From NCBI GenBank assembly GCA_003136555.1, contig PLEW01000233.1:6067-70066 (forward strand): 64,000 nt of DNA. The letters run 5' to 3'. A program made the position numbers and the translations under genes. The first letter of the stretch is position 1; each line of letters starts with the position of its first letter. The notes under the pieces were generated by a model. That model made no database searches. It worked only from the letters and a program-made list of their open reading frames with translations, and was not told the origin of the DNA. Below, piece by piece: positions 1,424 through 23,247 of the stretch. This stretch comes from Planctomycetota bacterium (GTDB taxonomy: Bacteria > Planctomycetota > UBA11346).

Positions 1424-2662
1424 ATGATCCATCACCGCAGCATCGTCCGCTCGACCCTCCTCCTCCTCGCCGGCCTCGGCGTCGTCGTGGCGGCGGAGGA
1501 CCAACAGCCTGCGTCTGCACCCGCCACCGATCCGACCGCCCAGCTCAAGCAGCGCCTGGATGACCTGGAAAAGCAGATCAAGGCTCTCCAGGCCCAGGTC
1601 CAGTCGACGAATCAGCAGCCGTCCGACACCGCCGCCCTCGAAGCACGGGTATGGAAGCTTGAGGCGGAAGGACAGACCGACAACGGCTATGCCTTCGGTG
1701 GGGTCGGAGATGTGACCTTGGTGGCGCAGAAGAATGTCGGCAAGACCGTCAGCGCGGACTTCAATCCGATCTTCATCTACAACTACCGCGAGTCGTTCCT
1801 CTTCATCGCCGAGCTCAATGCCGATGAGAACGGCGTCTCACTCGGGCAAGCGTGGATCGCCTTCACCTCGCTGCCGCATGCGGTCGTCGAAGCCGGCCGC
1901 TTCCCGCTGCCCTTCGGCGTCTACTCCGAACGCCTGTCACCCAGCTGGGTGAACAAGTTCTCCACCAACGCGCCGCAGCCCTACAATACGGACTACGGCA
2001 TCTTCTCCGAAGACCAGACGGCCGATGGTCTGCAGGTGCGTGGGGACATCCCGCTGCCCAACAACGCCAAGGGCAATTACCATATCTTCGCGGTTGCCGC
2101 GCCAACCTATAATAGTCAGGATTTCTCCGATAACCGCCTAGTATTCGGCAATCCGGGCACCGGCGACCACGTCCGTCCGACCCTCGGTGCACGTCTCGGC
2201 TTCCTGCCGATGCCGACCGTCGAAATCGGCGTCTCGGGCATGTTCGGCGCGATCATCAATCAGCAGACCGCCGATCCGACCATCGATGATACGGCCGAAC
2301 GCTCCTACCATGCATTCGATGTCGATGCAGAGTACCACTACCAGAGCGCAGTCATCCGTGGTGAATATGTGCGCATGGACAATCAGGACCCCACCGGAGC
2401 CTGGGTGCATTCCCAGGGCGCCTATCTCCAGGGTTCGCACCGCTTGACCTCGCTGCAGGGCTGGTTGAGCGGCTTCGAGCCGACCATACGCATCGGACGC
2501 GTTCAACGCAGCGTCGTCGATAACGGCTATCAAGATGTCAATGAGCTCGATATCGGGGTGAACTACTATTTCACCAGCTACATCCGCACCTCTTTGATGG
2601 GATTCGACCACAGCGTCCATTCCCTGGACCAGGTCGTCCTCAACACCACATTCTCCTACTAG
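1424..2662 (+). CDS. Porin-like outer-membrane protein with N-terminal coiled coil (OprO/P-like architecture)
   Basis: Signal peptide MIHHRSIVRSTLLLLAGLGVVVAAED. Coiled-coil segment LKQRLDDLEKQIKALQAQVQ. Long beta-rich body ending ...LNTTFSY (aromatic C-terminus). GGAG upstream of the ATG. Confidence 0.65.
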   Translation: MIHHRSIVRSTLLLLAGLGVVVAAEDQQPASAPATDPTAQLKQRLDDLEKQIKALQAQVQSTNQQPSDTAALEARVWKLEAEGQTDNGYAFGGVGDVTLVAQKNVGKTVSADFNPIFIYNYRESFLFIAELNADENGVSLGQAWIAFTSLPHAVVEAGRFPLPFGVYSERLSPSWVNKFSTNAPQPYNTDYGIFSEDQTADGLQVRGDIPLPNNAKGNYHIFAVAAPTYNSQDFSDNRLVFGNPGTGDHVRPTLGARLGFLPMPTVEIGVSGMFGAIINQQTADPTIDDTAERSYHAFDVDAEYHYQSAVIRGEYVRMDNQDPTGAWVHSQGAYLQGSHRLTSLQGWLSGFEPTIRIGRVQRSVVDNGYQDVNELDIGVNYYFTSYIRTSLMGFDHSVHSLDQVVLNTTFSY

Positions 2663-2675
2663 GAAGGAACCGGAC

Positions 2676-2981
2676 ATGACGTTTTTCCCCATGACCACGC
2701 TGTCCCTGTCCCTGGCGCTTGTCGCCTGCGGATCGTTGCAGGCCGAGGATTCCATGCAGAGTGCTGCGATGGGCGCAAAGGTCTTCGCTGAGAATTGCAA
2801 CCGGTGCCATGAGGCCCCGGACCCGGCGTCGCGCGACGGTCGTACCTGGACCGGCATCTCCCTGCATATGCGCGTCTTCGCCGATCTCTCGCAGGAAGAC
2901 CAGCACCGCGTGCTCGCCTTCCTGCGCACCTTCGATACGGCGGCCATCCCCAAGAAGCCGGGTGTCCCCGCCGCACGCTGA
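2676..2981 (+). CDS. Monoheme c-type cytochrome, lipoprotein
   Basis: Lipobox LSLALVAC. Single heme motif CNRCH. AGGAAGGA ribosome-binding site. Starts 14 nt after the porin gene, so probably the same operon. Confidence 0.8.
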   Translation: MTFFPMTTLSLSLALVACGSLQAEDSMQSAAMGAKVFAENCNRCHEAPDPASRDGRTWTGISLHMRVFADLSQEDQHRVLAFLRTFDTAAIPKKPGVPAAR

Positions 2982-3128
2982 GCGAAGGCCTGGTTGCCGG
3001 GTGGTCCGCGCACTACCCGTCCTCTCCGCCCTTCCACGTCAACACCTCTAGCGGGTCGTCGAGCGGTCCTGGGAGGGGTCAGGGCAGGGACTGGTGGTCG
3101 ACGGGCGGATTTCCGCGACCGGCACACT

Positions 3129-3142
3129 GGATAAGAACATCT
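3129..3142. promoter_or_regulatory. Candidate operator site 2 of 7: GGATAA-GA-ACATCT
   Basis: AT-rich island (ggataagaacatctgtttattttattg) 47 nt upstream of ATG 3189. Nearly identical to site 7 (GGATAAGATCATCTGTTTAG). Confidence 0.5.
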
Positions 3143-3188
3143 GTTTATTTTATTGTCATGTGACAGTCACGCGCTAGCATCCTTTTAC

Positions 3189-3992
3189 ATGTCCGATTCG
3201 GCCCCCACGACACGACGTCATTCGCGCGTACCGGCACTCGATCCGGAACGCGCCTTGTCCCGTCTCAGCGCCGTGCAGTTGCGCGAGCGCGAGCTGCGCC
3301 GTCCGGGCTTCCATTTCGCCTCAGCAGACGCGCCGGAAGACTTCATCTCTGCCTATCCAGAACTTGCGCAGATCTGCGCGGAGTGGGAATTGTGCACCGG
3401 GCAAGCGATCGGTGAAAGAGGTCCAGCCGCCACGCAGATCCTGCTCGAACTCGCCCGCAGGGCACAGCCGCCCTATCATGGGTTCGATTGCGGCGAAGTG
3501 AATATCTCCCGCTTGATCGATGAACTGGTGGACCAGCACCACCCCGCCTTGCGCTGGGAATTGGCGCGGCTGGACTTGCTCGTCGCCCGGCAGTCCGAGC
3601 TGCGCAACCGCGCCGATGTGCGCACCCTGCATTGCGGCTGGGAGGTGTTCCGCGATCGCTTCCTGGATCATCTGCATGAGGAGGAGGTCCATTGCTTCCC
3701 GCTCTGCCGCTTCCTCGACCAGGCGCGCTCGGAGCTGCTGCCGTCACGAGCGCAATGCGCTAGCCAACTGGCCATCATGGGCAACAGCCATGCCCAGTCC
3801 CAGTCGGAACTCGACGAGATGCTCGTGCTGGCGCGTCGTGCGGACATCGCGGTCATCGAACCTGATCTAGGCGTGGTCGTCCATGGCCTGGTCGCCATGC
3901 GCCAGGCACTCGTGCTGCATACCGAGCTGGAGAACGGCTCGCTGCTCAAGCGCTGCGCCCTGCTGGCGATCCAGCGGACGTCGGCCGCGTAA
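3189..3992 (+). CDS. RIC/ScdA-type di-iron (hemerythrin-like) protein, paralogue 1
   Basis: The track ORF starts at TTG 3153; ATG 3189 (MSDSAPTT...) is more likely. Hemerythrin-like motifs VDQHHPALRWEL, LDHLHEEEVHCFPL and LHTELENGSLL match RIC H-x3-E / HxxxEN..LFP blocks. N-terminal FISAYPELAQICAEWEL resembles the ScdA_N region. Confidence 0.7.
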   Translation: MSDSAPTTRRHSRVPALDPERALSRLSAVQLRERELRRPGFHFASADAPEDFISAYPELAQICAEWELCTGQAIGERGPAATQILLELARRAQPPYHGFDCGEVNISRLIDELVDQHHPALRWELARLDLLVARQSELRNRADVRTLHCGWEVFRDRFLDHLHEEEVHCFPLCRFLDQARSELLPSRAQCASQLAIMGNSHAQSQSELDEMLVLARRADIAVIEPDLGVVVHGLVAMRQALVLHTELENGSLLKRCALLAIQRTSAA

Positions 3993-4178
3993 TCAGCGGT
4001 CCTGCGCGGGTTCGCGCCATCCGGGGATGCAGGGCGATAGGCACAGCCCATATGGAACGGCCGTGGGGTCCGTACGTTGGGACCGCCGACCGCCGATTTC
4101 CGCTCTGATATGACGATCAGGCAGGACTTGCCTGCGGCGCAGCATCGGCAAGGCACATCGGCACACGAGCAAATATCA

Positions 4179-4192
4179 GGATAAATATATCT
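4179..4192. promoter_or_regulatory. Candidate operator site 3 of 7: GGATAA-AT-ATATCT
   Basis: AT-rich island (caggataaatatatctctttacatgaatagatat) 60 nt upstream of ATG 4252. Followed by CTTTACAT, as at site 6. Confidence 0.5.
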
Positions 4193-4251
4193 CTTTACAT
4201 GAATAGATATGGTGCGACAGTGCCCGTGGACACCGACCGTAGGAGCCGCTC

Positions 4252-5121
4252 ATGGATGCATCAGCCATCACCGTGCCCTTTCTCGGCCACTCCTGGAAGC
4301 GGGTGTACTGGGTAGATGAGCCGGAAAGCGCGCAGCACCTGCCGCCGGTTCCTATGCCGGCATCGCCGGCTCCCGCGGGCGCTCCACCGCTTTTCAGCGG
4401 CGCCAGCCGCCGTGCGGACCTGGTCGCCGCCTATCCCGATCTCGATGCGCTGTGCGATCGCTTGTCCTTCGGCTGGGACATGACGTTGGAGAGCTTGTGC
4501 AGCCAGAGCGACTGGGCGCTCCTTGAACTGGCCCGTGCTGCCAAGCCGCCTCGGCAGGCACGTCAAGCCGATTGGTCGATGGCGACCATGAGCGAGCTGG
4601 TCGGGGACATCCTTATCACCCACCATCTGCCATTGCGCAGTGAACTGCGACGCATCGACATCCTTATCCATCAGTTCTGCCGCCGCCACCCCGAACTGGC
4701 ACATTTCGATCTCCATGGGGTCTATGCGCGTCTGGCCGATGGCCTGAATGCCCATCTCGACCATGAGGAGGGGGTGGTCTTCCCCCTGGGCCTCGCCATC
4801 GAGCGCGCCAGCCGTCACCCTGGCCAGGACGTGCCCGCGAGCAGCGCGGTCACCGGCGCCATCCGCTACATGGCGCTCGGCCACCAGGACGCTGCGCAGG
4901 CGATACGACGCCTGCTGGTGGTCCTACGCCAGGTGCAGATGAACACCTTCGATACCGATCTCGGACTGATCAGCGATGCCTTGGCCGCCATGCTGGCCGA
5001 TCTCACCCAGCATGAGGACAAGGAGGATGGCATCCTGATGCCGGCCGTCATCTTCGCAGATGAATTGCTGCGCTCCCGCGCAGCGGCACCCGCCAGCACC
5101 AGTCACGGATCAGCAGGCTGA
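4252..5121 (+). CDS. RIC/ScdA-type di-iron (hemerythrin-like) protein, paralogue 2
   Basis: AGGAG ribosome-binding site. Motifs LVAAYPDLDALCDRL, ITHHLPLRSEL, LNAHLDHEEGVVFPL and LTQHEDKEDGILMP parallel paralogues 1 and 3. Confidence 0.7.
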   Translation: MDASAITVPFLGHSWKRVYWVDEPESAQHLPPVPMPASPAPAGAPPLFSGASRRADLVAAYPDLDALCDRLSFGWDMTLESLCSQSDWALLELARAAKPPRQARQADWSMATMSELVGDILITHHLPLRSELRRIDILIHQFCRRHPELAHFDLHGVYARLADGLNAHLDHEEGVVFPLGLAIERASRHPGQDVPASSAVTGAIRYMALGHQDAAQAIRRLLVVLRQVQMNTFDTDLGLISDALAAMLADLTQHEDKEDGILMPAVIFADELLRSRAAAPASTSHGSAG

Positions 5122-5260
5122 GCACGCCCCATGGTCACACCTCCCCGATCCGCAGCGACAGGCCTGCACACCGGCGAGCCGGCGAGCGTCCGGACCATCC
5201 CATCATCCAGCATAACCGAGCGGGTCGATCCCGCAGACATCAGCTGAGCAGGAGACCGCC

Positions 5261-6490
5261 ATGTACCGCAAACCCATTCCAACATCGGCCCACGATCGTC
5301 AGCAGCGCGAGCACGCACCCCATGTGCACGCCGAACCAGCCGCGGTGCCTGCGGCCGCACTGGACTATCAGCAGATCCAGGCGCTCGCAGCCCGCCCGGC
5401 GACGCCGACCATCTCCTTATATTTGCCGACGCACCGGGCCGGCAGCGACAAGAAGCAAGACCATACCCTGCTCAAGAACCTCATCCAGGAGGCGCGCCGT
5501 CAGGCGGATGGGACGATGAGCGCGCCAGGCGCAGATGCCCTGATCGCACCATTGAACCGCTTGGTCAACGAGCCCGGCTTCTGGGCGCATCCGCTCGATA
5601 GCCTTGCGGTGTTCAGCAGCGCCACCGGCATGACCCATGCCTGGCTGCCAGCGCCGGTGCCTGCGCTGGCTAGCTTCAGCGAGCACTGCCACCTCAAGCC
5701 GATCATTCCCCTGATCCAAAACGACGGCCGCTTCTATGTCCTCTCGCTGACGCAGCATGGTGTCCACCTCTATCGCGGCACCCGCCATGCCCTGACCATG
5801 ATCGAGCTGCCCAATACCCCGGCATCGATCGAGGAGGCGCTCGGCGAGCCGGTCCAGGAGCGCCACACCGAAGTACGCACCGTACAGGGCGGTGGACAGG
5901 GGTCGACTCGGTATTTCGGCACGGTGGGCGATGAGCAGGCCAAGGGCCGCATCCGGCACTATTTCCGGATCATCGACGGGACGGTTAGCCGCCTGCTGCA
6001 TGCCGAGCACGCCCCGCTGGTCATCGCCGGGGTCGAATTCCTCCTGCCGCTCTACCGCAGCGTCAACAGCTATCCGCACCTTGATCCTGCTGGGATCGGC
6101 GAGCACACCGACCCCCAGGCGCTCGGTGCCCTGCATCAGCGAGCCTGGTCGATCGTCGCCCCGCATTATACGGTGCCGGCGCTGAAGGCTGGTGAGCGGA
6201 TCGCCCAGCTCCTGGGCACCCCGCGCGCCTCGACCGACCTCGCGACCATCCTGCCAGCGCTGATCCAGGGACGGGTCGAGGACCTCTTCGTCGCCAGCGA
6301 TGCCGATCGCTGGGGCACCTATGATGCCAGAAACGACGTCGTGCGTGAGCACCATCCGCGCTGGGCGACCGATGATGATCTTCTCAATCTCGCGCTGATC
6401 CACGCCCTTGCGACGCGGGCTCTGGTCCAAGTCGTGCCCCGCGGCGACATTCCTGGTGGCCACGACATCGCTGCGGTATTCCGCTTCTGA
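5261..6490 (+). CDS. eRF1-like protein (bacterial archaeo-eukaryotic release factor, baeRF-type)
   Basis: AGGAG ribosome-binding site. TISLYLPTHR near the N-terminus, a central FYVLSLTQHGVHLY block, and a C-terminal ...GGHDIAAVFRF tail. These match my recollection of baeRF-family proteins. No search was run. Confidence 0.55.
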   Translation: MYRKPIPTSAHDRQQREHAPHVHAEPAAVPAAALDYQQIQALAARPATPTISLYLPTHRAGSDKKQDHTLLKNLIQEARRQADGTMSAPGADALIAPLNRLVNEPGFWAHPLDSLAVFSSATGMTHAWLPAPVPALASFSEHCHLKPIIPLIQNDGRFYVLSLTQHGVHLYRGTRHALTMIELPNTPASIEEALGEPVQERHTEVRTVQGGGQGSTRYFGTVGDEQAKGRIRHYFRIIDGTVSRLLHAEHAPLVIAGVEFLLPLYRSVNSYPHLDPAGIGEHTDPQALGALHQRAWSIVAPHYTVPALKAGERIAQLLGTPRASTDLATILPALIQGRVEDLFVASDADRWGTYDARNDVVREHHPRWATDDDLLNLALIHALATRALVQVVPRGDIPGGHDIAAVFRF

Positions 6491-6534
6491 CCAGGAACCA
6501 GTCCACCATCATACGCTCGTGAGAGGATGAAGCC

Positions 6535-7584
6535 ATGCACTGCGACCATCTCCATTCCATGATTCCGCTTGAACGCTATCGCGACATCATCGCCGCCATC
6601 GGCGCGAAACGCGAGTCCTGGGCCGACAGCTTCTGGATGCGTTTCGCCGCCCAGGCGGCGGTTCTCTGCCCCGATCCGCCAGAGCAGCTGGCCAAGCGCA
6701 TCCACCACATCGCCTCAGCGCTGCAGCAGCGGACAGCGTGGTATCGCACCCTCGCCTCTCCGGTGCGCTTCGTGGTCGCGGCGATGCTCATCCAGCATCA
6801 CATCCCGGTCGCCGACTTCCTCGGCGAATGCGATCGCGCCTCCGAGGTCTTCAAGGAGGTCGGATTGCACCATCATGGCTTCTACGAAACCATGGCCGTG
6901 CTCATCCTGCGCCTCTCCGCCAAGCATCCAGCCCCGAGCCTGATCCAAGCCGATCGCATCAAGTCGCTCTACGACCATATGAAGGGCTTCCACTGGTGGC
7001 TGACCGGGCCGAGCGACCTGCCTGCATGCGCCGCGCTCGCCTCGTGCCCCGGTCCGGCAGAGGTGGTGGTCGCCCATGTCGAGGATGCCTATCAGCAGCT
7101 CAAGGCCAGCGGACTGGCCAGGAACCATCATCTGCAGACCGCCGCGAATCTCCTGCCGGTCCTCGGCGTGCCGATCGACGAGGGGGTGTCCCGCTACCGG
7201 GCGCTCAAGATGGCCTTCGAAGTGCGCAACGGTGTCCTGGATGTGGAATCCTATGATGCGCTGGTGGTGCTGGCCCTCATCCACCAGACCACCGATATCA
7301 TCATCAACCGCTTGTGCTCGGTGCGCGAGGAGCTCGATCTCTTCCAGCCGGAGCAGTGCGGACCTGCCAATTTCCTGATTGCAGCCGACCTGACCGTGCT
7401 GGATCTGGTGCGTTTCGGTCCGGATCAGGAGCAGATCCGCCAGCCACAGGACGTCGAGAGCATGATGGCCACCATCCATGCCTTCCACATCGCCTCGGCG
7501 GTCCTGGTCAGCCAAGTGCAGCCGGAGATGATCCAGCCGCTCGGCGGCCTGGACGCCATGGGGTGGCCCTATCCCTATGCGTGA
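6535..7584 (+). CDS. Hypothetical all-alpha protein (possibly DUF4003-like)
   Basis: GAGAGGA ribosome-binding site, 45 nt after the baeRF stop, same strand. Long helical, His-rich sequence with no motif I recognise confidently. The antisense ORF 6715..7830 is judged a shadow. Confidence 0.55.
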   Translation: MHCDHLHSMIPLERYRDIIAAIGAKRESWADSFWMRFAAQAAVLCPDPPEQLAKRIHHIASALQQRTAWYRTLASPVRFVVAAMLIQHHIPVADFLGECDRASEVFKEVGLHHHGFYETMAVLILRLSAKHPAPSLIQADRIKSLYDHMKGFHWWLTGPSDLPACAALASCPGPAEVVVAHVEDAYQQLKASGLARNHHLQTAANLLPVLGVPIDEGVSRYRALKMAFEVRNGVLDVESYDALVVLALIHQTTDIIINRLCSVREELDLFQPEQCGPANFLIAADLTVLDLVRFGPDQEQIRQPQDVESMMATIHAFHIASAVLVSQVQPEMIQPLGGLDAMGWPYPYA

Positions 7585-7654
7585 GGGGGGCAGGACAGCG
7601 ATGAGAACCCCTGGGGTGCCCACACCTGGCGCGCGCGGACCGGCCGGCGCACGG

Positions 7655-7945
7655 TCAGAGATTCTGGAGCAGCACCCCTTCGGGGATGTCGGCGGAGAGT
7701 TTGATGACCTGGACCGGGCAGCCGTCGGCGATGAAGCGCATGAACACCACGCCCTCGGCGTCGAGCACGCCCGGGCGCAGCAGGCTGCGTTCGTCGCGGT
7801 TCTCGCTCTGGGTGATGTCACGACGGGCATCCGAACGGATCACGCACCCGTGCTGGCTGACGAAGAAGATCGCCGGTTCGAGATTCTGGCACCAGCCGCA
7901 CTGGATGCAGCCCTCATCGATCCAAATGACAGTCTTATCCGGCAT
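7655..7945 (-). CDS. Single-cluster ferredoxin
   Basis: CIQCGWCQ (CxxCxxC) plus the distal DGCPV motif. 96 aa. Divergent from rrf2 at 8132. Confidence 0.8.
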   Translation of the reverse strand: MPDKTVIWIDEGCIQCGWCQNLEPAIFFVSQHGCVIRSDARRDITQSENRDERSLLRPGVLDAEGVVFMRFIADGCPVQVIKLSADIPEGVLLQNL

Positions 7946-8067
7946 GACAAACCCTTCGACGGAAAGGAGTTAAGTCTAAATGGAGAAACCGCCCTCTGCA
8001 ATCGGAAACTCTGCATTAGGCCGAAGTACCTGCCCCAGCGGGGCTTGATTGTAATATATAAATAAGC

Positions 8068-8081
8068 GGATATATATGTCT
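8068..8081. promoter_or_regulatory. Candidate operator site 4 of 7: GGATAT-AT-ATGTCT
   Basis: In the AT-rich core of the ferredoxin/rrf2 divergent intergenic region, 51 nt upstream of rrf2 ATG 8132. Confidence 0.5.
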
Positions 8082-8131
8082 CATAGCATCCTGCATGTGT
8101 GGTGCGTTTCCCTTCCCCGTGAAAGTCCGTC

Positions 8132-8569
8132 ATGATATCTCAGACGACCGAATATGCCCTGCGAGCGATCGTGTTCCTTGCGGATACGCCGAGCGTCGCC
8201 CATACCGCCGAGTCCATCGCCAATGGCACCAAGGTCCCGGTGGGGTACCTGGCCAAGATCATGCAGGGCCTGGCCAAGGCCGGATTGGTGACCTCGCAGC
8301 GGGGGCTGTATGGCGGCTTCACCCTCGTCGGCCCACCCAAGGACCTCACTGTCTATGCCGTCGTGCAGGCGATCGACCCCATCCGTCGCATCACCGAGTG
8401 CCCGCTCGGTCTCGAGGGGCATGGACCGAACCTCTGCCCGCTGCACCGCGGACTCGACAATGCCATGCTGGCGGTCGAGACCGCATTCAAGAAGCTGACC
8501 ATCCAGCATTTGCTCACCCAGCCCCAATCCACCCGACCCCTGTGTGCGTTCCCTCGGCACGAGGAATAA
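8132..8569 (+). CDS. Rrf2-family transcriptional regulator with candidate Fe-S ligands (NsrR/IscR/RsrR-like)
   Basis: N-terminal wHTH: TEYALRAIVFL...VPVGYLAKIMQGLAKAGLVTSQRGLYGGFTL. Candidate ligands C90, H97, C102 and H105 (ITECPLGLEGHGPNLCPLH), plus C138. Confidence 0.9.
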   Translation: MISQTTEYALRAIVFLADTPSVAHTAESIANGTKVPVGYLAKIMQGLAKAGLVTSQRGLYGGFTLVGPPKDLTVYAVVQAIDPIRRITECPLGLEGHGPNLCPLHRGLDNAMLAVETAFKKLTIQHLLTQPQSTRPLCAFPRHEE

Positions 8570-8773
8570 GGCTGGCCCGCTCATTGCACCAGGGAGTAAC
8601 GGGTCGCGTGCGTGAGCCTACGAGCACATGACGGGCGAGGCGCTGAAACCGGTAAGTCAGGCCGCCTGTGGCAATGGTCAGTCGCCGGGGATTCCGCTGG
8701 TCCGTAGCGACAGCGAAGCAGGCATTGCAAGCCAAGACCCTGGTATCACACACCTGCCGACAAGATAATAACA

Positions 8774-8787
8774 GGATATTGATATCC
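8774..8787. promoter_or_regulatory. Candidate operator site 5 of 7: perfect palindrome GGATAT-TG-ATATCC
   Basis: In an AT-rich island (aacaggatattgatatccaattagactaataatag). 27 nt upstream of a strong-SD short uORF at 8814 and 83 nt upstream of GNAT ATG 8870. Confidence 0.55.
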
Positions 8788-8869
8788 AATTAGACTAATA
8801 ATAGAAGGAGGCTATGGGGTGGCGACAGCCTAACCACCGGTCCGTACCCCTTCCATTCGACCTCATGAC

Positions 8870-9532
8870 ATGATAGGATTGACCATGAACGCCTCGTCAC
8901 GCATGTCGCTCCCATCAGGGCAGCTGGAACCTCATGTCGAGGCAGCGGAACTGGCGGGATTCCCATCCCCGCCGGTGGAGCTGACGACGGGTGGGGGCTT
9001 GGCCGATCTCGCCCATCAACGCACCACGCTGGTCCTCAATGATGGCACGCAGGTCACCGTCAGACCGGTGCAGCCGGAGGACGAAGCGGGCCTGGTGGCC
9101 CTGCACCAGCAGCTCTCCCTGCACACCGTCCGCTTCCGCTACTTCATGGACATCCCGCTGATGACCCGCATCGCCCATGCACGGCTCGAGCGGGTCTGCC
9201 ATCCGGATCCGGCCAAGGAGGTGGTGCTCATCGCCGAGCATGTGCGGCAGGATGGGAGCACGGAAGTGATCGGTGTCGGCCGCATCAATCGCCAGCAGGA
9301 CCTCCAGGTCGGAGAGCTGGCGGTGCTGGTCGCCGATCATTGGCAGCGCCATACGCTCGGCTCCCGTCTTTTCGAGATGCTGATCGCCATCGCCAGGCAG
9401 GTGGGCCTCAAGCGGGTCTTCCTCAGCTTCCTGCCCGAAAACCGCATCATGCGCCTGCTTTGCGATCATCGCGGATTCACCGCGAGCGTGACGCCATCGC
9501 TGGTGACCGCCACCCTGGTGCTTGCGGGCTAG
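8870..9532 (+). CDS. GNAT-family N-acetyltransferase (Pat C-terminal-domain-like)
   Basis: VTVRPVQPEDEAGLVALH..., ELAVLVADHWQRHTLGSRLFEMLIAIAR (acetyl-CoA-binding Q/R-x-x-G-x-G/A-like segment), and FLPENRIMRLLCDHRGF. The start is uncertain (8870 or 8885). Confidence 0.75.
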   Translation: MIGLTMNASSRMSLPSGQLEPHVEAAELAGFPSPPVELTTGGGLADLAHQRTTLVLNDGTQVTVRPVQPEDEAGLVALHQQLSLHTVRFRYFMDIPLMTRIAHARLERVCHPDPAKEVVLIAEHVRQDGSTEVIGVGRINRQQDLQVGELAVLVADHWQRHTLGSRLFEMLIAIARQVGLKRVFLSFLPENRIMRLLCDHRGFTASVTPSLVTATLVLAG

Positions 9533-13077: not shown

Positions 13078-15567
13078 TCACCCCTGGGTGCCGAGCGGGG
13101 CCAATGGGGGCACTAGCGGGAGCGCTTGCGCAGGCGTCGACCGGTCTGGAGTGCTGGCGAGGAAATAGCGCCCGGCCGAGGCCATGGCCACGGCGGTGAT
13201 CGAACTGAGCGGCATCGCCACCGCACAGAGGTAGGGGCCCCAGACACCCATCATCGCCAGGACGATTCCGGCAGCATTATAGACCAGCGAGATGGCGAGG
13301 ATGAGGCGAACCTGGGCATTGGCAGCGGCGCAGCCGGCAAGCAGCTCCTGCAGCCCCTGCCAGGCGTCATTGCGGGCCACGAACACCTGGCAGCTGGCGA
13401 TCGCTGCCTCGACTCCGCCGCGTAGGCCGATGGCGAGATCGGCACGGGCGAGGGCGGCGGCATCGTTGACGCCATCTCCGATGACAGCGACCGCCCCCGA
13501 GCGGTGGAGCATGGTGACCAGGTCGGCCTTGTCCTCTGGCGCCATGCCGCCATGGATCTCCTCGGTGGAGAAGCCGAGCTCCGCTCCGACCGCATGCGCT
13601 ACGCGTGGATCATCGCCCGAGCAGAGATGGGTGGAGATGCCGGCCGCGCGCAGCTGGGTGAGCAGCGCCGCGGCTCCCGGGCGGATGGGATCGGTACAGG
13701 CGATGTGCGCCAGCACGACACCGTCGAGGGTGACGGCGATCACCGTGTCCTCAGGCCCATCGAGCCGCATGGCACCGCACTCGACCCCGGTGAGGCGCTG
13801 ATTGCCGATGCACAGCACGCCCCGTTCGGTCTGGCAGCGCAGTCCCTGACCGGGGATCTCAGACCACTCGGTGATCGGGAGCACGGCGGATAGTCCCAGC
13901 TCAGTGCTGATGGCGAGAGCGAGCGGATGCTGCGAACGGGCTTCGGCGGCGGCCACCGCCATGCGCCCCCACTCCTGCAGCGCGGCGTCGCCGCTTTGCC
14001 ACTGCCAGGCGACCACCCGCAGGCGGCCCTCAGTAAGCGTGCCGGTCTTGTCGAAGACCAGATGGCGGATGTTACCGCCACCCGCACGCATGCCGCCGAG
14101 GGCTTCCAGCGCACCGGCATCGCGCACCAGGATGCCGCGTACCGCTGCGCGTGAGACCGCCAGGGCCTGGACCAGGGGTGTCGCCAAGCCGAGGGCGCAC
14201 GGGCAGCTGACCAGCACCAGGGCGATGGCGCGCTCGAGGCCGCGAACTCCACCGCCCGGACCACCAGTGAGCCAGGATACCAGGATGGTGCCCAAGGCAG
14301 CTGCGGTCACCGAGAGGATGAAGATGGTCTGCAAGCGGTCGGCGATGCGGATCAGGGCGGTTGGGCGGGAGGCCGCATCCCCGATGGCGCTCAGCACCCG
14401 GCCCATGCGGGTCGCAGCACCGGTCGCGCCCACCTGCAGGCAGAGATGGTCGGCGAGGCAGGTGGTACCTGCGAAGACGATGTCGCCAGGGACCAGCTGC
14501 ACCGGCCGCGATTCGCCGCTGAGGGCGGCGGCATCGATGCTCGCCGGCGCATCCTGCAACAGGCCATCGCAGGGGACGACCTCGCCGTTGAGCACCTCGA
14601 CGCGATCCCCTGGGCGCAGCTCCGCGGTCTGGACGTTCTCGGTTCTGCCGGACGGCCCTGTGCGCCGAGCCACCAGCGGCATTAGGTGGTCCAGCGCCTC
14701 GGTCGCATTGGCGACCCGGCTGCCGGCGGCCAGCACCGCTACCCTGCCGGCGAGCAGCAGGGCGACGAACATGGTCACGGCATCGAAGTACAGTTCGCGC
14801 GACCCCTGCAGCAGGTTGACGATGCTGGCCACCACCCCGACCAGGATCACCAGGGTGGCGCTGACATCCATGGTCAGCCGGCCATGGCGGAGCGCCGTGA
14901 TGGCGGCGCGGTAGAAGGGTGCCGCCCCGTAGGTCAGTCCCGGGACCGCCAAGCCGAAGGCGCACAGACCGAACATCCGGGTGGCGCTCGGGTCGAGATC
15001 GCGGGTCATCTCGCCGGCATAGAGGTTGAGCGAGAGGTGCATCGCCCCCAGCGCGGAGGCGGAGGCGATCGCCAGGCGGATCAGCAGATGGCGGCGTTCA
15101 TCACGACGATGGGTGCTGGCCTGGGCGAACGGCTTGGCGCGGTAGCCGAGCGACCCCAGCAGGCGCACCTGTGCGGCGGGAGAGCTGTGCGTCGGGTCGA
15201 AGACCACGGTCAGCCGCCCGGTGGCGATGCTGACGCGGGCGCAGCGCACCCCATGGTCGATCCGGGGCAGCTGCTCGAGCAGCCAGACGCAGGCGGCGCA
15301 GTGCATGCCCACCACATGCCAGCGGACCTCGCTCAGGCCATCCTTCCGGCCGACTACCACCGCAGCGAGGGCGTCGCGCTCGGCGCTCACATCGGCGCTC
15401 GGTGTGGTGATGCGCTCTGCCGATTGTCCGCGCAGGCGGTAGAAGTCGCTCAGTCCACAGGCGTTGATCACCGCATGCGCCGCCTGGCAGCCCGGACAGC
15501 AGAAGTCCTGGTCGGCCGGGGCGAGGGAGGTGGCGCAGTGCTGGCAGAGACGGGCGCTCTCAGGCAT
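13078..15567 (-). CDS. ccoI: Heavy-metal (Cu) translocating P1B-type ATPase, CcoI/FixI-like
   Basis: N-terminal CQHC...CCPGCQ metal-binding domain, membrane CPC (VSCPCALGLATP), DKTGTLT phosphorylation site and GDGVNDAAAL hinge. Adjacent and divergent to the cbb3 operon. Confidence 0.88.
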   Translation of the reverse strand: MPESARLCQHCATSLAPADQDFCCPGCQAAHAVINACGLSDFYRLRGQSAERITTPSADVSAERDALAAVVVGRKDGLSEVRWHVVGMHCAACVWLLEQLPRIDHGVRCARVSIATGRLTVVFDPTHSSPAAQVRLLGSLGYRAKPFAQASTHRRDERRHLLIRLAIASASALGAMHLSLNLYAGEMTRDLDPSATRMFGLCAFGLAVPGLTYGAAPFYRAAITALRHGRLTMDVSATLVILVGVVASIVNLLQGSRELYFDAVTMFVALLLAGRVAVLAAGSRVANATEALDHLMPLVARRTGPSGRTENVQTAELRPGDRVEVLNGEVVPCDGLLQDAPASIDAAALSGESRPVQLVPGDIVFAGTTCLADHLCLQVGATGAATRMGRVLSAIGDAASRPTALIRIADRLQTIFILSVTAAALGTILVSWLTGGPGGGVRGLERAIALVLVSCPCALGLATPLVQALAVSRAAVRGILVRDAGALEALGGMRAGGGNIRHLVFDKTGTLTEGRLRVVAWQWQSGDAALQEWGRMAVAAAEARSQHPLALAISTELGLSAVLPITEWSEIPGQGLRCQTERGVLCIGNQRLTGVECGAMRLDGPEDTVIAVTLDGVVLAHIACTDPIRPGAAALLTQLRAAGISTHLCSGDDPRVAHAVGAELGFSTEEIHGGMAPEDKADLVTMLHRSGAVAVIGDGVNDAAALARADLAIGLRGGVEAAIASCQVFVARNDAWQGLQELLAGCAAANAQVRLILAISLVYNAAGIVLAMMGVWGPYLCAVAMPLSSITAVAMASAGRYFLASTPDRSTPAQALPLVPPLAPLGTQG

Positions 15568-16332: not shown

Positions 16333-16385
16333 GCGAGCAGCGTGCCATTCTGCGTCTCCATGTCTATGACAATTTGATTGTTTAA

Positions 16386-16399
16386 AGATATAAATATCC
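16386..16399. promoter_or_regulatory. Candidate operator site 6 of 7: AGATAT-AA-ATATCC
   Basis: AT-rich core of the 114-bp divergent region between the ccoI-side operon and ccoS. 48 nt upstream of ccoS ATG 16447. Followed by GTTTACAT. Confidence 0.55.
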
Positions 16400-23233: not shown

Positions 23234-23247
23234 GGATAAGATCATCT
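23234..23247. promoter_or_regulatory. Candidate operator site 7 of 7: GGATAA-GA-TCATCT
   Basis: AT-rich island (atggataagatcatctgtttagaataataatg) 45 nt upstream of ATG 23292. Followed by GTTTAGAAT (a TAGAAT -10-like hexamer). Confidence 0.5.

Follow-up and report, generated by a model that had tools for sequence, protein, structure and literature searches.

A probable Balon-type hibernation factor gene at the centre of a putative redox-regulated stress operon in one planctomycete clade

Background

Why should the gene of a release-factor-like protein lie between the genes of a di-iron protein and of an all-helical protein, behind what looks like a single operator? The question is raised by positions 4179-7584 of a 64,000-nucleotide stretch of DNA from a bog planctomycete (Planctomycetota bacterium, lineage UBA11346; assembly GCA_003136555.1, contig PLEW01000233.1, forward-strand positions 6,067 to 70,066), to which we refer as the window. 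Three plus-strand genes follow one another there and encode a RIC-like hemerythrin-domain protein, a baeRF (eRF1-like) protein and a DUF4003 protein (Table 1). A first-pass annotation made from the sequence alone had proposed that they are co-transcribed and that they connect nitrosative or hypoxic stress to the ribosome. The reading that we consider probable is that the cluster is a redox-regulated stress operon of one planctomycete clade, and that its central gene specifies a Balon-type ribosome hibernation factor.

Part of this idea is in print. Balon, Rv2629 and Msmeg1130 sit in the ribosomal A site, the latter two block translation as well as RaiA does and are induced by hypoxia (the DosR work is cited there), and Balon genes typically occur in stress operons (Helena-Bueno et al., Nature 2024, PMC10901736). 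The view of the first-pass annotation that baeRF proteins have no established function was thus out of date, as A-site occupancy and inhibition of translation had been shown, whereas its statement that the eRF1-like Rv2629 takes part in the response to hypoxia agrees with that paper. The link from stress to the ribosome, offered as a new hypothesis, is not new, because the function of the Balon family and its hypoxia and stress operons were published in 2024; the placing of a Balon-like gene under redox or low-oxygen control has a published counterpart in Rv2629, so that the core idea is known. Three things were not described in the literature that we searched: a conserved pairing of baeRF with DUF4003 (a family mentioned there in one paper, in passing), a RIC-like neighbour of a Balon-type gene, and, for Planctomycetota, an Rrf2-type operator that connects such an operon with a cbb3 oxidase and with a RIC-like family of five members. 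The locus is a new operon variant of the known Balon family.

Results and discussion

Family membership of the middle gene product

The eRF1-like assignment was upheld by profile searches, structure prediction and fold comparison. The 409-residue product matched baeRF_family3 (PF18845) in Pfam with 119.8 bits, and its sole NCBIfam match, over the full length, was NF052287 ('AOC03_06830 family ribosome hibernation factor'). The sole sequence match in the PDB (HMMER) was chain B of 8rd8, 8rdv and 8rdw, which is Psychrobacter urativorans Balon (E = 1.1e-8), residues 40-406 being aligned to residues 6-366 of 8rd8_B; a profile made from 60 homologues recovered the same chain at 8.1e-42 and the MSMEG_1130 Balon at 2.6e-14. 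The AlphaFold (AF2) model (pLDDT 86.4, pTM 0.77) has the three-domain aeRF1-like architecture (N, M and C/Pelota), and the best six matches of a Foldseek search against the PDB were all ribosome complexes of Balon, Msmeg1130 or Rv2629 (E = 1.4e-21 to 2.6e-14, TM 0.68-0.70, alignments of 384-404 columns), a group with the solved structures 8rd8, 8v9j and 8v9k (PMC10901736). The structures of aRF1, eRF1 and Pelota ranked after this group, at clearly lower TM.

Further details were compared with the solved proteins. The NIKS stop-codon motif is present neither in the window protein nor in any of the 60 homologues, and the middle-domain loop is unconserved. Strands 351-355 and 360-363 of the C-domain model form a predicted beta-hairpin, a candidate counterpart of the hairpin insertion with which Balon contacts EF-Tu; G352 is invariant there and W351 nearly so over the 60 sequences. 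A putative stress-operon setting is shared as well, with a low-oxygen or redox response proposed for the window gene in parallel to that of Rv2629. Judged by sequence and predicted fold, the middle gene very probably encodes a Balon-type hibernation factor. The genome holds one baeRF_family3 gene and one HPF gene, and this HPF gene is unlinked.

Layout of the cluster and its operator

The three genes of the open-reading-frame listing are separated by 139 nt (first and second gene) and 44 nt (second and third), an AGGAG or GAGG box stands 7-9 nt before each of the start codons (gtAGGAGccgctcATG, gcAGGAGaccgccATG and gaGAGGAtgaagccATG), and a convergent gene lies 70 nt past the cluster, all of which confirms the layout given in the first-pass annotation. 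No intrinsic terminator was seen within 4179-7584. The arrangement is operon-like, and we infer from it that the three genes form one transcription unit. The 139-nt spacer folded no better than shuffled sequence (z = +0.99), and no Rfam match was obtained in 2500-9500, the spacer included.

The operator that had been claimed proved to be real and not a product of chance. It follows the 14-bp palindromic pattern GGATAW-NN-WYRTCY, for which the pattern search returned 6 distinct matches in the window where 0.05 were expected, and the copy before the cluster (GGATAAATATATCT) is placed in the sole AT-rich island (4170-4215) of a 259-nt intergenic region. The whole genome contains 15 distinct matches. 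Nine of these are in AT-rich intergenic DNA and precede the five RIC-like paralogues, two Rrf2 genes, the GNAT gene and the cbb3 oxidase genes, while the remaining six are in GC-rich sequence, in agreement with a chance expectation of roughly five.

Independent checks on the pattern came from the sites outside the window, which stand upstream of two RIC-like paralogues (contigs C223 and C26) and of a second Rrf2 copy, and from those in other genomes (loci as in Table 2). L065 carries the motif directly upstream of baeRF, ahead of both Rrf2 and ccoNO, and in the interval that separates GNAT from a divergent DUF4003 gene, and its site at 13515 is the equivalent of the window site at 16386; the motif also occurs before the RIC-like gene in L068 and directly before baeRF in L069, and with one mismatch in L067. 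No clear operator was found upstream of baeRF in L002, L003, L006, L007, L009, L010 or L011. For most of the start codons that were checked, the distance from the end of the site is 39-59 nt, a spacing that fits an operator within the core promoter. Most copies are directly followed by a hexamer resembling TTTACA, TTTAGA or ATTAGA (window 4193-4199, 16379-16385 and equivalents), which may either belong to a longer site or represent a promoter element of the -35 type.

Table 1. Positions of the genes and operator-like sites of the window
Feature	Position	Strand	Evidence or context
Operator-like palindrome GGATAAGAACATCT	3129..3142	+	before RIC-like gene 1
RIC-like protein 1, 279 aa	3153..3992	+	PF01814 25.4 bits, just above cut-off; TIGR03652 46 bits, far below cut-off
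Operator-like palindrome GGATAAATATATCT	4179..4192	+	59 nt before the RIC-like 2 start
RIC-like di-iron protein 2, 289 aa, first cluster gene	4252..5121	+	PF01814 35.9 bits (cut-off 25.3)
Homologue of the Balon-family ribosome hibernation factors (baeRF family 3), 409 aa	5261..6490	+	PF18845, NF052287, PDB sequence and fold matches
DUF4003 all-helical protein, 349 aa	6535..7584	+	PF13170 75 bits (gathering cut-off 28.1)
Small ferredoxin-like protein, 96 aa, CxxCxxC...CP	7655..7945	-	weak Fer4_13 match; convergent to the cluster
Operator-like palindrome GGATATATATGTCT	8068..8081	+	50 nt upstream of the Rrf2 gene
Rrf2-family regulator, 145 aa, candidate operator binder	8132..8569	+	PF02082 91.8 bits
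Perfect palindrome GGATATTGATATCC	8774..8787		before the GNAT gene
GNAT acetyltransferase	8870..9532	+	PF00583; best match Pat NF058543, 54.6 bits (cut-off 460)
Operator-like site	16386..16399	-	between divergent DsbD_2-like gene and cbb3 oxidase operon
Operator-like site	23234..23247	+	before RIC-like paralogue 3
RIC-like paralogue 3, 263 aa	23292..24083	+	hemerythrin domain; paralogue alignment

Conservation of the neighbourhood

We examined the genetic context of baeRF genes in a sample of 401 genomes of the phylum, 56 of which contain a family-3 baeRF gene and 32 a DUF4003 gene. About 12 kb was taken around 54 of the baeRF loci, and this collection was extended with contigs that encode the closest homologues, with 80 loci from genomes (4 Planctomycetota, the rest Chloroflexota, Cyanobacteriota, Bipolaricaulota and others), recovered with a profile of a 20-sequence alignment, and with 80 loci from metagenomes. 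The baeRF and DUF4003 genes are adjacent in 8 of the 13 loci of one planctomycete clade and in none of the approximately 190 other baeRF loci. In a maximum-likelihood tree of 78 baeRF proteins all linked genes fall within a single 12-row clade (100% SH-aLRT support; 7 of the 12 linked), as compared to 0 of the 66 rows outside it. The 13th member, L065, was assigned by similarity and left out of the tree because its baeRF gene has an in-frame stop. The 80 genome loci provided no new DUF4003 or RIC-like neighbour of baeRF, and the only addition from the 80 metagenome loci, L151, duplicates the locus of the window itself. Among named relatives, the nearest are metagenome-assembled genomes labelled 'Planctomycetota bacterium'.

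Table 2. Gene order at the loci related to the cluster (minus signs denote the opposite strand)
Locus	Source	Gene order
Window	this genome	RIC-like, baeRF, DUF4003, ferredoxin (-), Rrf2, GNAT
L065	142-kb contig	GNAT, RIC-like, baeRF, DUF4003, ferredoxin (-), Rrf2, ccoI, cbb3 operon
L068	Logan contig	Rrf2 (-), ferredoxin, RIC-like, baeRF, DUF4003
L067	Logan contig	RIC-like, 907-aa Pat-type acetyltransferase, baeRF, DUF4003
L069	Logan contig	baeRF, DUF4003, Fer2 (-), ECF sigma factor
L006	JGI metagenome	baeRF then DUF4003
L011	G360	baeRF then DUF4003 (contig end); L070 is the same contig
L010	G347	DUF4003 then baeRF, overlapping (reverse order); RIC-like and GNAT about 3 kb away

The neighbourhood is therefore conserved in related genomes, so that the first-pass annotation withstands the refuting condition it had set itself on this point, and the pairing of baeRF with DUF4003 is real and specific for the clade without being obligatory. 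L065 is a near gene-for-gene match of the window. As to whether baeRF genes neighbour hemerythrin or RIC genes across genomes, a RIC-like gene is found upstream of baeRF on the same strand in four loci (window, L065, L067 and L068), yet directly adjacent in just two of these (window and L068), and one gene removed in the other two. The RIC-like gene is a frequent yet looser member of the neighbourhood. This company differs from that of the published Balon genes, for which the main text of PMC10901736 gives RaiA, Hsp20, OsmC/OsmY, HdeD, MarC, EmrB, RtcB and Hrp1, and no RIC-like or DUF4003 protein.

The candidate regulator and its probable signal

The candidate operator binder, an Rrf2-family protein, is encoded downstream of the cluster. 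A second Rrf2 copy on contig C26 is identical to it in 126 of 145 residues and has the same operator in front; that copy is convergent, tail to tail, with the fifth RIC-like paralogue (the two in contig region 26489-27948), and an operator precedes each of the two genes. The closest solved relative of the window protein is 6hsd/6y45 (E = 2.7e-9), which we take to be the redox-sensing RsrR of Streptomyces venezuelae, followed by NsrR (5n07, 8.8e-6), and its cluster region reads C90-x6-H97-x4-C102-x2-H105. With the iron-sulphur (Fe-S) regulators of the family (6hsd/6y45, NsrR, IscR) it shares the winged-helix Rrf2 fold, a palindrome before its own gene, and a putative regulon of redox, Fe-S and respiration genes; unlike the three-cysteine members it offers C90, H97, C102 and H105 as the candidate ligand set. 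Rv2629, in contrast, belongs to DosR, whereas the candidate regulator here is an Rrf2 protein with its own palindrome.

The specifically nitrosative signal assumed in the first-pass annotation finds no support: the protein does not qualify as an NsrR equivalog with three cysteine cluster ligands (47.3 bits with NF008240 against a cut-off of 182). A redox or oxygen signal is more likely than specifically nitric oxide, because the closest solved relative is 6hsd, ahead of NsrR, and the five di-iron proteins and the high-affinity oxidase of the regulon, together with the relatedness of the regulator, point to redox state, oxygen limitation or Fe-S status. The most likely signal in our view is a cue from redox state or oxygen limitation with a bearing on Fe-S clusters as well; nitric oxide is possible and not indicated.

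The same setting bears on another explanation. Conflict-related origins have been proposed for baeRF-1 (Burroughs and Aravind, PMC6514570), and the cluster might be a ribosome-targeting module for conflict or phage defence. It is, however, embedded in a respiratory and redox regulon with a cbb3 oxidase and inherited within one clade, PADLOC returned no match for the five proteins tested, and neither a mobile-element signature nor a compositional break was found, and we regard such a module as extremely improbable.

Points for and against a proposed redox-regulated Balon operon

Several observations have to be set against the preferred reading of the cluster as a redox-regulated stress operon around a Balon-type gene. 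The middle protein reaches 110.2 bits with NF052287 where the equivalog cut-off is 330, which makes it a family-level relative and not an equivalog of P. urativorans Balon, and its identity to the solved Balons, Msmeg1130 and Rv2629 included, is just 15-19%. The THREHP stretch of Balon, with the N-domain HP motif that contacts the decoding centre, aligns with THRAGS, where no HP dipeptide stands; P56 and H58 are near-invariant in this clade in the alignment of 60 sequences. The middle-domain loop of the window copy, which corresponds to the catalytic loop of eRF1, bears a GGQ tripeptide. On the side of regulation, no sigma-70 consensus promoter was recognised within 4179-7584, the operator region included, the operator pattern was drawn up after the first sites had been seen, and the assignment of the operator to Rrf2 follows solely from proximity and from the sites before both Rrf2 copies. 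Finally, clade members L002, L003, L007 and L009 do not have the DUF4003 pairing, and the same-genus genome that carries L007 (G211) has a baeRF gene and no DUF4003 match anywhere in the genome; L073, the fifth member without a visible pairing, ends at a contig edge and is not scorable.

The GGQ tripeptide could be taken to mean that the eRF1-like protein is a catalytic rescue factor that hydrolyses peptidyl-tRNA on oxidatively or nitrosatively stalled ribosomes. It is situated at residues 211-213 (window 5891-5899), in a disordered, low-confidence loop of the middle domain (198-222), and a few baeRF-1 families do keep the catalytic Gln (Burroughs and Aravind, PMC6514570). Yet just 6 of 60 homologues carry it in this loop, which is variable in length, and even the closest relatives do not conserve the Gln, a pattern that the same authors describe for catalytically inactive baeRF-1 families; moreover, the Foldseek comparison places the fold closer to Balon than to eRF1. 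Because it is not conserved, the tripeptide was set aside as a catalytic motif and is probably incidental in the window copy, and a rescue factor seems to us very unlikely. Several of the closest relatives show a G-Q-G/S pattern in the loop.

The RIC-like proteins

The first cluster gene was labelled RIC in the first-pass annotation, a name that is too strong. RIC-like protein 2 has a hemerythrin-like di-iron domain with the His/Glu ligand positions, as seen from PF01814 and the alignment of paralogues. It scores 65.9 bits with TIGR03652 (cut-off 204.7) and 31 with the YtfE model NF008221 (cut-off 254) and has no match to ScdA_N (PF04405), and for these reasons we call it RIC-like. Among PDB sequences it comes closest to YtfE (E = 0.004). 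H125, E131, H168, E172, H211, H254 and E258 are invariant across the five paralogues, and H125, H168 and E172 align with YtfE residues that we take to be di-iron ligands. RIC-like protein 1 can be aligned with the four other paralogues and has the His/Glu positions conserved. The fourth paralogue, on contig C223 (40023-40933), is preceded by a perfect-palindrome operator.

In comparison with the iron-centre repair proteins YtfE, ScdA and DnrN, the C-terminal hemerythrin-like domain, the invariant ligand-aligned residues and the match to YtfE are shared. The same may hold for control by an Rrf2-family regulator, as proposed here: ytfE of Escherichia coli is under NsrR control. The protein differs from them in scores far under the family cut-offs, in the undetected ScdA_N and the long divergent N-terminal part, and in being one of five RIC-like paralogues with one operator each.

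The DUF4003 protein: partner or bystander

The description of the third product as all-alpha and His-rich holds, as DUF4003 membership is clear (Table 1), the AF2 model (pLDDT 87.7, pTM 0.88) has 16 helices and 19 of the 349 residues (5.4%) are His. The fold search of the PDB gave nothing at E < 0.1, and no PDB sequence match, P-loop or CxxC motif was found in the protein; designed helical toroids, terpene synthases and membrane transporters, which surfaced as possible fold relatives, were rejected since their similarity was weak and non-significant. Its invariant residues include M149, H153, W155, P163, C165, E183 and R220. The genome encodes five DUF4003 copies, and the four outside the cluster lie in unrelated contexts, operator-free and with no shared neighbour. 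One of these paralogues (contig C20; locus L062, 5794-8322) is divergent from a DnaJ-like gene, CbpA-type by look, which is followed by a small 101-aa gene that by appearance could be cbpM-like.

These copies bear on the possibility that the three genes are merely co-regulated within an Fe-S and redox stress regulon, so that the Balon-like protein would act alone and the DUF4003 and RIC-like proteins would serve metal or redox chemistry with no link to the ribosome. Such an arrangement would be in keeping with the operator-free copies elsewhere in the genome, with the close DUF4003 homologues P0120 and P0126 (59-62% identity) that are not beside baeRF, with the 5 of 13 clade members in which the pairing is missing (G211 having no DUF4003 gene at all), and with the separate position of the RIC-like gene in L065. 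The pair, on the other hand, stays together where rearrangement has displaced or eliminated the RIC-like, GNAT and Rrf2 genes (L006, L011 and L069) and even where the gene order is swapped and the genes overlap (L010), and this persistence is more than mere membership of a regulon predicts. We hold co-regulation alone to be a serious possibility, if a somewhat unlikely one. That DUF4003 is instead a dedicated partner of this Balon clade, a loading, stabilising or releasing factor on ribosomes, is put forward tentatively and with some doubt; if true, the pair would constitute a hibernation module of two proteins under the control of an Fe-S redox sensor and would provide the first function for the DUF4003 family.

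Other genes of the neighbourhood

The small ferredoxin-like protein encoded past the cluster has orthologues in L065, where the gene occupies the equivalent place, and in L068, where it stands upstream of the RIC-like gene. Homologues of the GNAT acetyltransferase were found in L065 (4229-4789), L010 (904-1944) and L067 (3215-5938), in the last case within a Pat-type fusion of 907 aa whose gene immediately precedes baeRF, and in L215 (2-1327) a GNAT homologue lies directly upstream of the gene of a Balon-like relative at 36% identity. The recurrence of GNAT and Pat-type genes beside the Balon-like gene suggests a possible link between acetylation and the hibernation factor.

In a sister lineage (L003, L004 and L005; GCA_038213315.1 and related contigs) a nitroreductase-family gene is directly upstream of the Balon-like gene (genes 2760-3548 and 3620-4933), the DUF4003 neighbour is absent, and a DnaJ gene lies in divergent orientation. 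The arrangement is reminiscent of the nitroreductases that belong to the mycobacterial DosR regulon. In L065, the in-frame stop of the syntenic baeRF gene lies in a locally garbled stretch (7600-7800; ...GIGACFR*SPLVL...) of a nanopore-derived contig, and is either an assembly error or the mark of a pseudogene.

A model for the cluster and its meaning

In the preferred reading of a redox-regulated Balon operon, the Fe-S-type Rrf2 regulator, encoded 0.5 kb downstream, would bind the palindrome at 4179-4192, which overlaps the promoter region, and arrival of the signal would bring about a joint change in the transcription of the RIC-like, Balon-like and DUF4003 genes. The Balon-like protein would then enter the ribosomal A site, with neither mRNA decoding nor peptide release, so that ribosomes are parked, while the RIC-like di-iron protein would handle damage to metal centres or Fe-S clusters. 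The DUF4003 protein would be a clade-specific accessory, either a partner of the Balon-like factor or a stress protein that is merely co-regulated with it.

Balon was described only in 2024, and the locus bears on the questions of when cells deploy it and which partners it has beyond EF-Tu and RaiA. Through its defined cis element and its candidate Fe-S regulator, a Balon-type factor would be placed in one regulon with a high-affinity cbb3 oxidase and five di-iron proteins, and the conserved, uncharacterised neighbour DUF4003 is a concrete candidate for a Balon accessory protein. As a parallel to mycobacterial DosR and Rv2629, with a different regulator and in a distant phylum, it suggests by analogy that the parking of ribosomes under oxygen or redox stress may be a recurrent solution.

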